IMG/VR virus record: IMGVR_UViG_2636416089_000002
Source: a virus
Lineage: Duplodnaviria; Heunggongvirae; Uroviricota; Caudoviricetes
Length of the DNA: 17,336 nt
Strand: one strand, 5' to 3'
The notes below the pieces were generated by a model. That model did not search any database, was not told the origin of the DNA, and worked only from the letters and a program-made list of their open reading frames with translations. Positions 9,859 through 15,486 of this stretch are shown piece by piece (the first letter of the stretch is position 1; each line of letters starts with the position of its first letter). The position numbers and the translations under genes were made by a program.

Positions 9859-10706
9859 GGGCGAACCTCCTTGTCAGAACCATTCAGCCTGGAATCAACA
9901 AGTGCAGCGCCAAAAACAGCATCACCAACACGGTCGTACAGTTTGCTAGCCAGCGGAGATTCAACGGCCTTAAGCATTGGATAAAGCTGGCTTGTCCAGA
10001 TTTGATGGATTTCACGCAAATGCAGGTATACGCCTCTGGCGTTTCGTGCGACAGCTGACATATCAGACGTATCGGCACCTGATAAACTCTTCTCCATCAG
10101 GTTAAAGGCGTTGATGTATGCCTCTTTGAACCGGGCAGCACGTTTACCAGTGAAGCCCATGGCAAGGAACGCGAAGCCATCGCGGGTGATTTGATAGCAA
10201 GGTAGTTTGCGGCCTGATGCGTCGGTGTATTCACTTAACACAAAATTGTGTTCAGTAAATTCAGCGGAACATTCGAGGTTTCTAATTCTATCTAAAACCC
10301 GCTCATGCCGTTTAGTAAAGTAATTAGCTACTGCAAGAGATGTGGTGACAACGCGACCATTGATAATCGTGATTTCAGGGTGAGATTGGGTTGGGAGAGT
10401 AGTCATGGTGACAGCCCCTATGTTGAATTCAATGAACTCACCACCAAGGCTTTCCACGACCATATAGGTGGTGAGACGTACAGGGGTGGAAATACCGGTC
10501 AACATAGAACCCGGCCCAACCGAAATTGGCCCTGCACGCCACACCATAATTTGGGCGTAACGATGCTCATGACACGAAAAAACCGCATGAGCGCGGTTGT
10601 GCTCTATATTGAATTTCGGGTTTCCACGCCCGGCACCCGCTTTATAAGGTGCAGAGACAGTGTAACGTCCCGAAATTGCAGAATCAATATGCTGGTGGCG
10701 GATCAT
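9855..10706 (-). CDS. Rha-family phage regulatory protein (antirepressor-like) with 100-codon N-terminal extension
   Basis: Rha-like core begins at the internal Met (codon 101, ATG at 10406, preceded by AGGGG): MTTLPTQSHPEITIINGRVVTTSLAVANYFTKRHERVLDRIRNL. The full ORF starts with ATGA overlap to the upstream gene. Confidence 0.65.
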   Translation of the reverse strand: MIRHQHIDSAISGRYTVSAPYKAGAGRGNPKFNIEHNRAHAVFSCHEHRYAQIMVWRAGPISVGPGSMLTGISTPVRLTTYMVVESLGGEFIEFNIGAVTMTTLPTQSHPEITIINGRVVTTSLAVANYFTKRHERVLDRIRNLECSAEFTEHNFVLSEYTDASGRKLPCYQITRDGFAFLAMGFTGKRAARFKEAYINAFNLMEKSLSGADTSDMSAVARNARGVYLHLREIHQIWTSQLYPMLKAVESPLASKLYDRVGDAVFGAALVDSRLNGSDKEVRP

Positions 10707-11365
10707 AGGTGCACCTCCCGTTGATTACGACGGAACGCGGAGTGACCCTGGACGGTTTCAGCCTCATGGAATGCTTCAATACAGCTCTCGTAGTACCGCA
10801 TTGTGCGCAGACTTAACCCAAGCTGAAGCATCATCAGACCATCAAGGGTGATGTAATAACCACGCAGGGAGTCACCGTAGATGTGATAAGTACCCGGTAT
10901 GAAATTGCGGGTAAAAAACTCGCGTGAGCAGTTCAGATACTCGATTTTGTCGACGATGTTCTGGTGCATGCGCTTAAAGTGGCAGGCAACATGCAGGGAG
11001 AAAATAACGGCCTTGCCGTTGACAACTTCAATTTTGAGGAATGGGGAAGTTGGGACTGTAGCCATGATGGCAGCCTCCGTATGCAATGGATAACTTCCAC
11101 CACCGGAGCTGCGAAACTCACTGGTGGCAGACTGAACAGGGTTCGCAGTACCGGCGCATACGGAAACCGGCGAGCCTTTCGGCTCCCCTGCCCAGCCCAC
11201 CATAATTCTGGCGTGCGTGAGCGCGGACGATAAAAAAGACGCTGGCGCGTCGTATATCGCCGTATGCAATTCCGGGCTGCGACCCCCGGCACCCGCTTTA
11301 TAAGGTGCGGAGACAGTGTAACGTCCCGAAATTGCAGAATCAATATTTGGTCTTGAAATGATCAT
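10703..11365 (-). CDS. Rha-family phage regulatory protein, tandem paralog with 100-codon N-terminal extension
   Basis: Rha-like core from internal Met at codon 101 (ATG at 11065, GGAGG 8 nt upstream): MATVPTSPFLKIEVVNGKAVIFSLHVACHFKRMHQNIVDKI. The first ~60 nt are near-identical to the paralog. Confidence 0.65.
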   Translation of the reverse strand: MIISRPNIDSAISGRYTVSAPYKAGAGGRSPELHTAIYDAPASFLSSALTHARIMVGWAGEPKGSPVSVCAGTANPVQSATSEFRSSGGGSYPLHTEAAIMATVPTSPFLKIEVVNGKAVIFSLHVACHFKRMHQNIVDKIEYLNCSREFFTRNFIPGTYHIYGDSLRGYYITLDGLMMLQLGLSLRTMRYYESCIEAFHEAETVQGHSAFRRNQREVHL

Positions 11366-12300: not shown

Positions 12301-12594
12301 ATGAAAGTTCAGGCCGTTGGTTTATTCTGGTTTCGCGATGCGATTCAGTATCATGAGCTCAAAAATATTTTTACTGATGCTGATGTGCTCTCCGACAGTT
12401 ACACCGAGTGGAAACACGACGCTGAAAAATTGATTAAGCGTGTCGAAAGAGGCGGGCAACGAGTTATTAAAGTTGAAGCGGATACAGCCGAGTTCATCGC
12501 TTGGTGTACAAGCGAAGGCATTGGAATCAATGCCGAAGGTAGAATGCAGTTCGCATCCTTTAAGGCTTACCAACAACTTCTCAGCGAACGCTAA
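12301..12594 (+). CDS. Hypothetical 97-aa protein on the repressor strand
   Basis: Strong RBS AAGGAGG 6 nt before ATG; no recognisable motif. A 110-aa antisense ORF (12322..12654) fully overlaps it and cannot be excluded. Confidence 0.5.
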   Translation: MKVQAVGLFWFRDAIQYHELKNIFTDADVLSDSYTEWKHDAEKLIKRVERGGQRVIKVEADTAEFIAWCTSEGIGINAEGRMQFASFKAYQQLLSER

Positions 12595-12664
12595 TGTGAT
12601 CGGGGCAATCGAAATGGTTGTCCCATCGTATTTAATAGTTATTTTTTCGCTCATATCACCACCA

Positions 12665-12874
12665 TCACTTCCCATCTTCCGTGTGCGCTAGGCTTGGGTG
12701 TGTATATGGAATGCTCGGATCCAAATGACAAAGAATGGCAACATCCTCCGGAACACCTCGCGTTTTCCACTTTCCAACACCTTGACTGCCACGAGGCCTT
12801 CCTTTCTTTGGGAACCTGCGACCAATAGCGGCATTGGTTTTAAATTGAATTTTTAATATTTCATAAAGGGTCAT
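12665..12874 (-). CDS. Hypothetical 69-aa ORF at the position expected for cro
   Basis: Only minus-strand ORF divergent from the repressor gene across a 112-bp region holding repeated motifs; no obvious HTH and a weak RBS, so this may not be a gene. Confidence 0.2.
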   Translation of the reverse strand: MTLYEILKIQFKTNAAIGRRFPKKGRPRGSQGVGKWKTRGVPEDVAILCHLDPSIPYTHPSLAHTEDGK

Positions 12875-12927
12875 TCTTTAGTCTCACACCAGATACTTTG
12901 TTATCCAACGATGTTAACCACAGGAAT

Positions 12928-12964
12928 CCAAAGTATCAAGAAATTCTGTTACTTTAGTATCAAC
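12928..12964. promoter_or_regulatory. Candidate operator/promoter region upstream of the repressor gene
   Basis: AGTATCAA at 12932-12939 and 12956-12963, sharing the motif found downstream of the repressor gene. Confidence 0.4.
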
Positions 12965-12985
12965 AGCCATGAGAGGAGAAGAAAA

Positions 12986-13642
12986 ATGAAGTCTTTAGGT
13001 GAACGTCTCATCAACGCACGGCAAAAAGCTGGGTTAACACAAGATGCGTTGGCTAAAAAAGCTGGGATCACCAGAGTTGCAATCAGTAAAGCCGAGCAAG
13101 GCCTTACAAAAAGTTTCAACGGTGACACCCTTTTTAAAGTTGCAGCTGCACTGCGGTGTTCACCGCAGTGGCTTCAGAACGGAGATGAAAAAGATAAGCA
13201 TTGGGAAAATAATGTTAAGAGCTGCCCACAGAGAGACACAGCACACTCTTACCCTGTAATTAACTGGGTTCAGGCAGGATTATTCGCAACTTCTGGTGAT
13301 GACTACAACATGTATGATCAGGATAATTGGAGGCATTCTGTAAAATACGCTGGTGAGAGGGGGTTCTGGCTGGAAGTGCACGGAGACTCAATGACTTCGC
13401 CCGTAGGAATAACATTTCCTGAAGGAATGTCGATCCTTGTCAACCCAGATAAAGAAGTTTTTTCAGGGTGTTACGTCATCGCCAGAAAAAAATCTACCAA
13501 TGAAGCAACATTCAAAAAATATATTTCTGACATGGGAAAGGCGTTTCTAAAGCCCCTTAATCCACAATATCCAATCATAGAAATGGACAATGATTGCGAA
13601 ATAGTAGGTGTTGTGGTTGATGCCAGGTGGGATATTTTCTGA
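12986..13642 (+). CDS. cI: CI-like prophage repressor (N-terminal HTH, C-terminal LexA/S24 autopeptidase domain)
   Basis: MKSLGERLINARQKAGLTQDALAKKAGITRVAISKAEQG, Ala-Gly cleavage site (VQAGLF), GDSM serine and downstream Lys. RBS GAGGAG before ATG 12986; the ORF track starts further upstream at 12911. Confidence 0.85.
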   Translation: MKSLGERLINARQKAGLTQDALAKKAGITRVAISKAEQGLTKSFNGDTLFKVAAALRCSPQWLQNGDEKDKHWENNVKSCPQRDTAHSYPVINWVQAGLFATSGDDYNMYDQDNWRHSVKYAGERGFWLEVHGDSMTSPVGITFPEGMSILVNPDKEVFSGCYVIARKKSTNEATFKKYISDMGKAFLKPLNPQYPIIEMDNDCEIVGVVVDARWDIF

Positions 13643-13670
13643 CCAGACACAAAACACAAAAAGAAACCAA

Positions 13671-13741
13671 AGTATCAAAAATCACTTGCCACACCTTGAT
13701 ACCTTAGTTACCATAAAACAAAGTTCGTAACTGAGGTATCA
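13671..13741. promoter_or_regulatory. Candidate operator cluster and promoter between the repressor gene and the downstream HTH gene
   Basis: AGTATCAA (13671-13678), inverted TTGATACC (13696-13703), GGTATCA (13735-13741); possible -35 TTGCCA and -10 TACCAT with 17-bp spacer overlapping the inverted site. Confidence 0.4.
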
Positions 13742-13745
13742 TCTC

Positions 13746-14162
13746 ATGATCAATAAAGCTACAACTCTTGACTGTCTCGAAGAACTGAAAAACCTCGGCA
13801 GCCTCATTACACTAATAGCAAAAGCAACACCTGATGCTACGCTCTCTAGCGATATAGAGTCATGCGCAGGACTGGCATGGGATATGACAAATAGCATATC
13901 CAGAAAGCTATCGTCAGCAATGCTTTTACAGAACAAAAATTCTGCAATCAACAACCGTCTTCGCACCCAACGCGAAGCCTGCGGCTTAACAACCGCCGAA
14001 CTCGCCAGGCTGCTCGATCTCGATGAAGAAATTATCATCCAGTGGGAGAGCGGAGAGTGTGAACCAACTATCAGTATGCTTATCCCACTGGCAAATATTC
14101 TTGGCTGCGATCCGATGTGGCTGTTAACTGGTAAACCAACAGGTGGGGATACTTGCGCATGA
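13746..14162 (+). CDS. XRE-family HTH protein with unknown N-terminal domain (138 aa)
   Basis: C-terminal LRTQREACGLTTAELARLLDLDEEIIIQWESGECEPTISMLIPLANILGCDPMWLLTGK is a Cro/C1-type HTH; GAGG upstream of ATG. Confidence 0.6.
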   Translation: MINKATTLDCLEELKNLGSLITLIAKATPDATLSSDIESCAGLAWDMTNSISRKLSSAMLLQNKNSAINNRLRTQREACGLTTAELARLLDLDEEIIIQWESGECEPTISMLIPLANILGCDPMWLLTGKPTGGDTCA

Positions 14163-14401
14163 AAAACTGTGATGCTTACCATATTTGTCTCATTGGTGAA
14201 TTGCTTGATTTCATACAAAAAAGCACTGCGCACAATAATAAAAATATAACATATGGTGATCTGGTAATAATTTCAGAGGATATAAAGAGCATCGCTCTTA
14301 AATTCAAGAGCGACGCGAGTATTGATGACGCTATTTACGCTTATCTTGCGAAAATAATTGACGGATCCAAAATCCAGCCTCTGGATGAACCTCGTCAGTG
14401 A
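14159..14401 (+). CDS. Hypothetical 80-aa protein, coupled to the upstream HTH gene
   Basis: ATG overlaps the upstream stop (ATGA); AT-rich; no recognisable motif. Confidence 0.5.
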   Translation: MKNCDAYHICLIGELLDFIQKSTAHNNKNITYGDLVIISEDIKSIALKFKSDASIDDAIYAYLAKIIDGSKIQPLDEPRQ

Positions 14402-14558
14402 AAAACTCCTTTGATGAAGATGAGAACTGCTTCATTAACTTTACTTTATCTTCAGGTGAAACTACCTGACGAATTAATGCGGAGATAGCAACTTTGTGCC
14501 AAATTAATTCTTTTTTGAGTTCTGAAATCTCTTTTTCGAGTTGCTCTGCGTTAATCAT
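14331..14558 (-). CDS. Hypothetical 75-aa protein, convergent and overlapping the preceding gene by 71 bp
   Basis: GGAGGA 4 nt before ATG; predicted helical (LEKEISELKKELIW). The overlap makes it doubtful that both are real. Confidence 0.3.
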   Translation of the reverse strand: MINAEQLEKEISELKKELIWHKVAISALIRQVVSPEDKVKLMKQFSSSSKEFFTDEVHPEAGFWIRQLFSQDKRK

Positions 14559-14737
14559 TTATCCTCCATTGAGAGCTGAATTGAAAATGGGGACCAACAC
14601 GCGGCTACGTGTGGTCGTGCGCCGGACACGGATAAGCATCCGGTAACTGATTATCAATCATTGCGGAAACAGTCTCAATATGAAAACACTTCTGAGACTC
14701 GCTATATAGCAGGACATATAAGTCAGCTGAGGAAGCC

Positions 14738-15103
14738 ATGAAAAAGTTCGAAAACATAACTGTTCTCCATGTTGATGACTTTGATTATACAAACCCGGAA
14801 CTTCTCCCGGAGGTTGTAAAGGCAATAGATGTTGCCGATATAGTGATTAGAGAAAAGAGAATTGTCAAAAACAGGCTCGCATGCACTTCAGGAGCAATGA
14901 CAGAAACAACCTCACAGCAAGATAATTACGAAGGCATTTGTCTGGAGCCTGATTCATTTGCGGTAAATGTTTATCATTTATTGCATGCAACACAGGTATT
15001 ACATATGTCCAGTAATCACGAAACGAAAACACTCGGCAGCGAAATTCTGAGTTTTGCATGTGAGTATACAAAAGCTGCTGCCGAAAAAGAATTAGCGCAA
15101 TAA
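14738..15103 (+). CDS. Hypothetical 121-aa protein
   Basis: ORF with AGGA upstream, AT-rich, no recognisable motif. Confidence 0.5.
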   Translation: MKKFENITVLHVDDFDYTNPELLPEVVKAIDVADIVIREKRIVKNRLACTSGAMTETTSQQDNYEGICLEPDSFAVNVYHLLHATQVLHMSSNHETKTLGSEILSFACEYTKAAAEKELAQ

Positions 15104-15181
15104 CAACAAATATGCCCTGAACGTTTATTGCGGTTTTATCGCCGGGGATTGTTACAACCTTAATCCACAGGAGGCTTTATT

Positions 15182-15295
15182 GTGACTTTTATAAAGAATA
15201 TGGCATCACACAAGACCGCCTGCCTTATTGCACAATACGGTGAAAATTACATGCATATTGCCTGCTTATTTCTGCGTAAAGCATACGGGAGATAA
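15182..15295 (+). CDS. Candidate 37-codon small ORF or leader peptide
   Basis: GTG start with AGGAGG 7 nt upstream; its stop sits inside the RBS of the next gene. Below the ORF-track size cutoff. Confidence 0.25.
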   Translation: MTFIKNMASHKTACLIAQYGENYMHIACLFLRKAYGR

Positions 15296-15297
15296 TA

Positions 15298-15486
15298 ATG
15301 CATCAGAAAACAGCAGAACACGAACAAACCAGAATATTGCTGACCATCAAAAACGGGAAAGTAATATTCATTCGCCATGTTCATGACGATGAACTTGTAG
15401 GAACTCTTTCAACATTCCTGTTTATTGCAGAAAAGGCAGGATATGACGTTATTGCACCAGCAGATGAAGATGAAGATGAGGAATAA
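15298..15486 (+). CDS. Hypothetical 62-aa protein with acidic C-terminal tail
   Basis: GGGAG 6 nt before ATG; ends ADEDEDEE; 5-nt gap to the next gene. Confidence 0.5.
   Translation: MHQKTAEHEQTRILLTIKNGKVIFIRHVHDDELVGTLSTFLFIAEKAGYDVIAPADEDEDEE

Follow-up and report, generated by a model that had tools for sequence, protein, structure and literature searches.

A probable PL-proximal Cro/C2-type regulator and a predicted moron behind a shared two-hairpin leader in a phiP27-like prophage of Escherichia coli

In lambda and HK022, the first open reading frame (ORF) behind the OL/PL region is N or nun, and the early-left operon that it opens runs toward xis and int. The same map position is the subject of this article in IMG/VR record IMGVR_UViG_2636416089_000002, a stretch of tailed-phage DNA whose full length of 17,336 nucleotides is referred to here as the window. 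The closest described relative is phage phiP27 (AJ298298 / NC_003356), in which the genes L11 (cI), L10, L09, and L08 occur in the same order and are all listed as "unknown" or "putative". phiP27 encodes the same L10 protein of 138 amino acids (aa) with a few substitutions; it differs in that an A-run insertion truncates the 75-aa ORF present in the window and a different minus-strand ORF is annotated as L09. Sequence comparison leads us, with moderate confidence, to read the locus as the site of leftward control in a phiP27-like prophage that has Q but lacks N, with an inserted moron cassette following directly behind it, a moron being an independent transcription unit inserted in a phage genome (PMC3594210). 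The control region and its flanking genes comprise the following features.

12892–12961, between cro (minus strand) and cI (plus strand): OR region, with putative operators at 12892–12905 (one mismatch), 12924–12937, and 12948–12961.
12986–13642, plus strand: cI repressor of 218 aa, with a helix-turn-helix (HTH) and a LexA-type S24 autopeptidase domain.
13663–13740, between cI and L10: OL region, with putative operators at 13663–13676, 13698–13711, and 13727–13740.
13746–14162, plus strand: L10-family protein of 138 aa directly after cI, with an N-terminal helical hairpin and a C-terminal Cro/C2-type HTH.
14738–15103, plus strand: L08-family protein of 121 aa (phrog_5451), the next early-left gene after L10.

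The window is a phiP27-like lambdoid prophage of E. coli. In megablast searches with positions 12800–14800, phiP27 matches over the full length at 95.5% identity, and 32 complete E. coli genomes match at ∼99%. Annotated relatives carry on the minus strand a Q antiterminator, a DUF968 gene, a helicase, a loader, Rha-family genes, and a cro-like gene, and on the plus strand cI ("LexA family protein"), an HTH-domain protein, several small hypotheticals, ea22-like genes, xis, and int, with a minus-strand hypothetical directly after the plus-strand HTH-domain gene. The int end of these relatives adjoins yecE/yecN/cmoA. This gene order places the locus at the left edge of the immunity region in a lambdoid prophage with a Q-type and without an N-type antiterminator.

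The repressor gene is readily identified by its Pfam scores (PF00717, 78.8 bits; PF01381, 54 bits), as well as by the labels given to it by PGAP ("LexA family protein") and in phiP27, where L11 is a "putative lambda repressor". The initial annotation of this sequence had proposed repressor control of the next gene on the basis of three upstream copies of AGTATCA. Only one exact copy is present in 13643–13745 (at 13671), two more lying in the cI–cro intergenic region, and the other two sites upstream of L10 read GGTATCA (at 13735 and, inverted, at 13697). The recurring unit beside cI is instead a 14-bp pseudopalindrome, GWWWC-N4-GWWWC. All five exact occurrences in the 17-kb window adjoin cI (12924, 12948, 13663, 13698, and 13727), compared with 0.95 expected by chance, and a count of five was reached in 1 of 200 shuffles. 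The one-mismatch operator at 12892 is a perfect palindrome, GATACTTAAGTATC, in the 85%-identical Stx2_12E129 phage. With an HTH and S24 domain in the protein and three sites at each of OR and OL, the arrangement has the makeup of a lambdoid cI with a predicted tripartite operator.

A PL-like promoter that matches the consensus, TTGCCA-17-TACCAT, lies at 13686–13714. The OL operators are positioned just 5′ of its −35 element, across its −10 element, and at about +6 to +20, and OL1 overlaps the GAGG Shine–Dalgarno (SD) sequence of L10. In Stx2_12E129 the operator blocks and both PL hexamers are invariant and the spacers are changed, a pattern that we read as a phylogenetic footprint. In the heteroimmune PhiR49_2 and phi467 prophages, a clear intrinsic terminator ends cI, and the L10 homologue has a consensus promoter of its own (TTGACA-17-TAATAT or TAACAT) within its own operator-like repeats. 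Control of the L10 promoter by cI, as first proposed, is thus well supported at the sequence level by three operators around a promoter-like site that are conserved in a diverged relative. Because OL operators and a promoter precede L10 here, and a consensus promoter precedes it in the heteroimmune relatives, L10 appears to be the first gene of a PL-type early-left operon, in the slot held by N in lambda.

L10 is not an N protein, as the initial annotation had already recognized. Antiterminators of the lambda N type are small and basic, carry an arginine-rich motif at the N-terminus, and are accompanied by boxA/boxB nut sites that follow PL; L10 lacks an arginine-rich N-terminus and is a DNA-binding HTH protein, and in the interval from PL to L10 no boxB-like element was recognized and no Rfam match was obtained. 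Unlike in HK022, no put-like RNA was found either. The C-terminal HTH matches PF01381 at residues 72–126 (38.4 bits against a cut-off of 23), which together with a predicted five-helix fold makes L10 a Cro/C1-type HTH protein (HTH_3, XRE), and its first 70 residues match no Pfam family, bearing out the initial description of a C-terminal HTH behind an N-terminal domain of unknown type. L10 falls in phrog_4739 (5e-84), whose function is unassigned, and its C-terminal two thirds also match phrog_4836, labeled "CII-like regulator". The DicA model (NCBIfam NF007257) is matched in the HTH only, at 45.6 bits against a cut-off of 101. Literature searches on phiP27 L10 returned nothing specific.

A search of 5.8 billion proteins yielded 156 relatives of L10, essentially all from E. 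coli, with one Salmonella sequence. Their HTH is near-invariant, RTQREACGLTTAELARLLDLDEEIIIQWESGEYEPTISMLIPLANxLGCDPMWLLTG, and is preceded by about five very different N-terminal hairpin segments; many relatives, of 215–232 aa, carry a second HTH after the first. The AlphaFold2 (AF2) model built on this alignment (mean pLDDT 80) shows a helical hairpin (helices 2–27 and 31–78) running into the five-helix HTH. In Foldseek comparisons of this model, the C-terminal 63 residues superimpose on the DNA-binding domains of P22 C2, 434 repressor, and 434 Cro at 0.8–1.5 Å and 32% identity, with P22 C2 the best of these (template modeling score 0.90, root-mean-square deviation 0.8 Å, 32% identity), and further matches include controller proteins, SinR, and HipB. 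The HTH half alone accounts for these matches; the hairpin has no counterpart in the PDB or BFVD. Unlike in P22 C2 and the 434 proteins, the HTH of L10 is C-terminal, with a helical hairpin before it and no S24 or oligomerization domain after it, its sequence is constant across immunity types, and the gene lies downstream of PL rather than at PRM or PR.

L10 is under purifying selection, as evidenced by an excess of synonymous substitutions (permutation P=0.002). The type of hairpin tracks the type of cI in 6 of 6 loci that span four cI types, and within one type the hairpins are 70–74% identical, more diverged than cI (88–94%) or the HTH. We therefore assign the hairpin, but not the DNA-binding domain, to the immunity module on sequence grounds. 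L10 is probably an immediate-early transcription regulator whose predicted dimer is held by the hairpin, and a role of the hairpin as a partner-specific interface is plausible. The perfect 7-bp inverted repeat AGTCTCA-N15-TGAGACT at 14671–14699, which overlaps the −35 element of the promoter-like site of the 75-aa gene described below, was considered as an L10 operator and rejected, as its occurrence follows L08 and not L10: all loci with L08 have the repeat, and L10 loci that lack L08 do not.

The position and fold of L10 could also be explained if it were a second repressor or exclusion factor expressed in the lysogen, in the slot of rexAB or nun, which would be cotranscribed with cI from PRM and whose HTH would act on related superinfecting phages or co-resident prophages. 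There is no terminator-like site between the cI stop (13642) and L10 in the window, the nearest structural relatives of the HTH are themselves the DNA-binding domains of repressors and Cro, and near-identity of the HTH across heteroimmune prophages is what a shared target would produce. Against this, the relatives have both an intrinsic terminator after cI and an L10 promoter, operators that cover −35 to +20 and the SD of L10 are the classic arrangement for silencing in a lysogen, and all of the would-be target phages encode the same HTH. The slot named by the initial annotation, that of N or rexAB, holds for N in that L10 is the first gene behind OL/PL, but no RexA or RexB homology was found, and the PADLOC matches for L10 are generic HTH segments (RmrA, capH, and HTH_VI). 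We regard a lysogen-expressed repressor or exclusion factor as unlikely.

Downstream of L10 the two strands overlap, and the features between L10 and L08 are as follows.

14159–14401, plus strand: 80-aa ORF, a candidate gene whose start shares ATGA with the TGA stop of L10.
14289–14316, minus strand: predicted terminator of the 75-aa ORF, a 12-bp stem with a U-rich tail, inside the 80-aa ORF.
14558..14331, minus strand: 75-aa predicted helical protein (PGAP WP_000606214.1), corresponding to the phiP27 L09 region.
14559–14643, minus strand: two-hairpin leader of the 75-aa ORF, made up of the SD GGAGGA, hairpin I, the core, and hairpin II.
14592–14616, minus strand: hairpin I of the leader.
14617–14631, minus strand: leader core, GTGCGCCGGACACGG.
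14622–14643, minus strand: hairpin II of the leader.
14678..14650, minus strand: promoter-like site of the 75-aa gene, TTGAGA-17-GATAAT.

The three ORFs of the initial annotation (L10, the 80-aa ORF, and the 75-aa ORF) are all present as open frames, including the ATGA overlap at 14159–14162 and the opposing 75-aa ORF with its own GGAGGA. The 75-aa ORF, a member of phrog_20080, is preceded by GGAGGATAAATG and converges on the 80-aa ORF with a 71-nt overlap (14331–14401). Its promoter-like site has 10 of 12 consensus matches, and the predicted start, ∼14643, is the first base of hairpin II; both hexamers are kept in phiP27. The terminator begins 14 nt past the stop and has a fold energy of −22.9 kcal/mol (z = −3.84, with 0 of 200 shuffles as good), and the sole phiP27 substitution within it improves pairing. 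In PhiR49_2 the segment 14163–14650 is missing as a whole, and L10 adjoins the sequence upstream of L08. The 75-aa ORF thus has a predicted promoter and terminator of its own and is present or absent at the same junction among close relatives, and it is best read, from these sequence features, as a moron that lies against the surrounding operon between genes that are adjacent in a close relative. Outside the overlap with the 80-aa ORF, substitutions among haplotypes number 2, 3, and 13 by codon position (third position, 13 of 18), a synonymous excess with permutation P=0.015. No homologue of the 75-aa protein was found outside this module. One-base insertions in the frame fall in A5/A6 runs near its 5′ end (14505–14535, minus strand; L002 and L055–L058), and these homopolymers might allow slippage.

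The initial annotation had joined L10 and the 80-aa ORF in a two-gene operon overlapped by the convergent 75-aa ORF, an arrangement likened to a regulator–effector or toxin–antitoxin (TA) module. Under that explanation L10 would be the antitoxin or autoregulator, the 80-aa protein the effector, and the 75-aa gene or its mRNA an antisense modulator. Several features of the 80-aa ORF are in line with such a pair. Besides the ATGA overlap, a GGTGGGG SD-like stretch lies 8–9 nt upstream of its ATG, and none of the haplotypes, which diverge by ∼7% at the nucleotide level, interrupts the frame (pN/pS ∼0.35). AF2 predicts a three-helix bundle from a near single-sequence alignment (pLDDT 70, pTM 0.53). 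A block made of a GKPTGGDTCA tail of L10, the 80-aa ORF, and the 75-aa ORF recurs as a unit behind L10 genes with three different types of hairpin, and with three different types of cI, and the L10 HTH has a weak, subthreshold likeness to antitoxin HTHs (couple_hipB, 25.5 against a cut-off of 71.65; MqsA, 25.1 against 61.8).

Other observations weigh against the 80-aa ORF as a gene. PGAP does not call it, and it encloses the opposite-strand terminator hairpin of the 75-aa gene. In the nonoverlapping part, substitutions are spread as 5, 6, and 7 over the three codon positions, with no third-position bias and a synonymous excess that is not significant (permutation P=0.13) in a test of low power, since the accepted gene L08 itself gives P=0.18; dN/dS is 0.3–0.4 for both of the overlapping ORFs and does not separate them. 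The 80-aa ORF is an ORFan: an exhaustive HMMER search found no credible homologue among 1.84 billion representatives, a word-indexed search returned matches from the same module only, and Foldseek of the model against the PDB gave no match below E=6. Two candidate homologues (P0132 and P0134) were rejected as long repeat proteins with a compositional match that is incompatible with the helical prediction. The AT-richness ascribed to this ORF is only modest, with a GC content of 0.36–0.40 across 14100–14600 against 0.39–0.48 in the flanks. On balance we find translation of the 80-aa ORF possible but somewhat doubtful.

The homology and structure searches called for by the initial annotation placed the L10 HTH, but neither the 80-aa nor the 75-aa ORF matches a Pfam or TA family; no known toxin family is adjacent to L10. 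At cut-off, PADLOC, Pfam, and NCBIfam give no TA family. PADLOC returns nothing for the 75-aa ORF and a weak, subsignificant DUF2290 match for the 80-aa ORF (E=0.0062). Most L10 homologues lack both the 80-aa and the 75-aa ORFs, and L10 genes without the 80-aa ORF are common, as in PhiR49_2, phi467, and the double-HTH forms of 215–232 aa, some of which occur on ∼1000 contigs. L10 function would thus not require the 80-aa ORF. Since L10 is common without this ORF, the sites at the L10 promoter are cI operators and not an autoregulatory palindrome, and no TA or defense family is matched, the TA explanation is not supported, and we consider it improbable. The initial annotation was thus confirmed in part as a description and supported in part as an interpretation.

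The leader of the 75-aa ORF gives a further reason to separate this gene from the supposed pair. Of 5426 complete E. coli genomes, 972 carry 82–92% identical copies of the 93 nt directly upstream of its start (14558–14650), mostly without annotation, and complete E. coli genomes hold roughly 1600 copies of the element in total; further copies lie at 3001–3093 of L006 and 3080–3135 of L010. Its hairpins are joined by GTGCG and fold on both strands. For a survey of what follows the leader, 120 viral contigs with the core GTGCGCCGGACACGG were fetched, of which 84 held true copies with usable flanks. At least 12 unrelated minus-strand ORFs of 57–101 aa begin 55–60 nt from the core in these copies, each behind the SD GGAGGATAAAATG or AGGAGGGTGAAATG. 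One of these cargo ORFs is GhoS-like at threshold, and the remaining ones match no Pfam family. On its left, the variable segment begins within a conserved plus-strand gene, and the C-terminal part of that gene differs from cargo to cargo. This parallels the block of L10 tail, 80-aa ORF, and 75-aa ORF that moves as a unit in the window. Because the leader fronts many unrelated small ORFs, it looks like a shared cassette site and is not private to the 75-aa gene. This is unlike other morons, and it argues that the 75-aa ORF, instead of being an accessory of the pair, is cargo of a separate, widely shared expression platform, as far as sequence comparison can tell.

The same element connects the window to the Qin prophage. 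The hairpin II core is shared with the dicA/ydfABC-dicF-dicB operon region of K-12 Qin, and at the equivalent site in the Qin-like prophages of O157:H7, E24377A, and ATCC 25922, the element lies between a minus-strand small ORF and dicF-dicB; the small ORFs there, of 69 and 64 aa, bear no relation to the 75-aa protein. Unlike Qin, the window has no DicF or dicB, and L10 scores below the DicA cut-off. The two-hairpin element is not in Rfam, and across the whole window Rfam at E≤1 gave no match within 12600–15300. A put-like antiterminator RNA, which would be a two-stem homologue of putL/putR, ∼70 nt long and close behind PL, was rejected: there is no blastn match to HK022, and putL is unlike the window hairpins, which lie ∼900 nt from PL. 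The identity of hairpin II as a repetitive extragenic palindromic (REP) element, to which it bears only a partial resemblance, was set aside as well. The element is not described in a paper on dicBF regulation, and literature searches on the ydfC–dicF element and on small-ORF cassettes in PL operons found nothing specific.

Several observations weigh against the reading of this locus as a PL control region with a moron behind it. For both promoters and operators, what the sequence shows is a consensus match or a conserved block, and with no predicted terminator after cI, PRM read-through could reach L10 in a lysogen. No DNA target of L10 was found, the 11-mers common to six heteroimmune loci all being coding sequence. 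Two independent one-base A-run insertions, one in phiP27 and one in the heteroimmune relatives L055–L058, truncate the 75-aa ORF and leave the 80-aa ORF intact; since the 75-aa ORF is truncated in sizable lineages, the moron appears to be dispensable or decaying there. For the leader, no good minus-strand promoter was found beside it in the Qin-type prophages, and in K-12 the hairpin II core is flanked by ydfC and dicF within a plus-strand operon, where the minus strand carries no ORF.

These last observations bear on the function of the two-hairpin element, which may act on the plus strand instead. In that case it would be an intercistronic stabilizer or processing signal of the plus-strand early transcript, similar to REP elements, and the minus-strand ORFs would be incidental or secondary. 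The K-12 copy is in line with this, as are the copies in P13374 and phiSTEC1589, which lie in gaps between plus-strand genes and have no annotated ORF on the minus strand, and a stable ydfABC fragment that ends upstream of dicF has been reported (bioRxiv 10.1101/2023.04.14.536235). One closing pair of hairpin II holds as G-U only on the plus strand, but one variant of hairpin I holds as G-U only on the minus strand. Given the strong minus-strand SD and the constant spacing from the core that at least 12 unrelated ORFs have in common, and the coding-type substitution bias in the 75-aa frame, a plus-strand role that makes these ORFs incidental is the least probable of the alternatives, and the two roles are in any case mutually compatible.

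One of the hairpin types of the L10 family has a counterpart outside it. A stretch of 47 aa in the C-terminal half of L08 shows 43% identity with residues 24–70 of P0064, an L10 relative with a type-B hairpin (E=1e-9), so the hairpin exists also in a separate neighboring protein; similarity between L08 and the type-A hairpin of the L10 in this window was not detectable. SinR and SinI are an HTH protein and a small protein that shares its helical interaction domain. The likening of L10 and L08 to them is a resemblance only: the L08 segment is similar to the type-B hairpin, and both genes are adjacent in PhiR49_2, but the hairpin in this window is of type A and not similar to L08.

Taken as a PL control region with a moron cassette, the locus would work as follows. 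In the lysogen, cI bound to OL1–3 would keep L10 off, and the 75-aa gene would be transcribed from its own promoter toward L10, stopping at its terminator before reaching it. Upon induction PL would fire and L10 would be made first; it would probably bind DNA as a hairpin-held dimer and act as an immediate-early regulator with targets that are not immunity-specific. Coupling to L10 may lead to translation of the 80-aa ORF. Transcription from PL would cross the cassette in antisense, then L08, and continue in the direction of xis and int. No plus-strand terminator is predicted within 14162–14737, and with PL transcription running antisense through the cassette the moron should therefore be shut down on induction.

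A broader version of this model is more tentative. The leader may be a recombination-prone platform for exchangeable small proteins expressed in the lysogen, with roles such as defense, antidefense, or host modulation and with the 75-aa protein among them, and induction would silence these proteins through antisense transcription from PL; L10 may be an immunity-linked early regulator whose fast-evolving hairpin is partner-specific for cI, for itself, or for hairpin proteins such as L08, in the manner of SinR/SinI. As it stands, the locus is best filed as an uncharacterized PL-proximal Cro/C2-type regulator with a moron, and it goes a little beyond the ordinary in its immunity-linked hairpin on a conserved HTH and its conserved leader with exchangeable small-ORF cargo.

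Other parts of the window hold features of a similar kind. Tandem copies of the C4 antisense RNA and the isrK Hfq-binding RNA (Rfam, above gathering score) lie at 10464–10652 and 11120–11308 on the minus strand, each at the 5′ end of a Rha/antirepressor-like ORF (283 and 220 aa), and look like a duplicated antirepressor control module of the P1 immI type in the rightward operon. An STnc100 small RNA (139 bits) is found at 3045–3561 on the minus strand, beside three tRNA genes and downstream of the Q/methyltransferase region. Two overlapping minus-strand ORFs at 3611–4659 (151 and 240 aa) look, when joined, like the DNA methyltransferase gene that is annotated as one coding sequence in the close relative L001, and a frameshift in this copy may have split it. 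Finally, a 97-aa ORF at 12301–12594 on the plus strand, between the minus-strand Rha gene and the cro-like gene, opposes the rightward operon; an ORF of the same size holds this place in the heteroimmune relatives L055–L058, and it may be another moron.

For annotation, these results speak against a toxin–antitoxin label for this locus. If the proposed reading is true, N-less prophages of the phiP27 type, including Stx-converting phages, would open their early-left operon with a DNA-binding regulator. L10 would then represent an unstudied layer of induction control in polylysogenic pathogenic E. coli, with a DNA-binding domain that is common across immunity groups and a hairpin that goes with the immunity module. 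The core GTGCGCCGGACACGG with an SD at a fixed distance would, in turn, provide a handle for finding unannotated small prophage genes in about one fifth of complete E. coli genomes.

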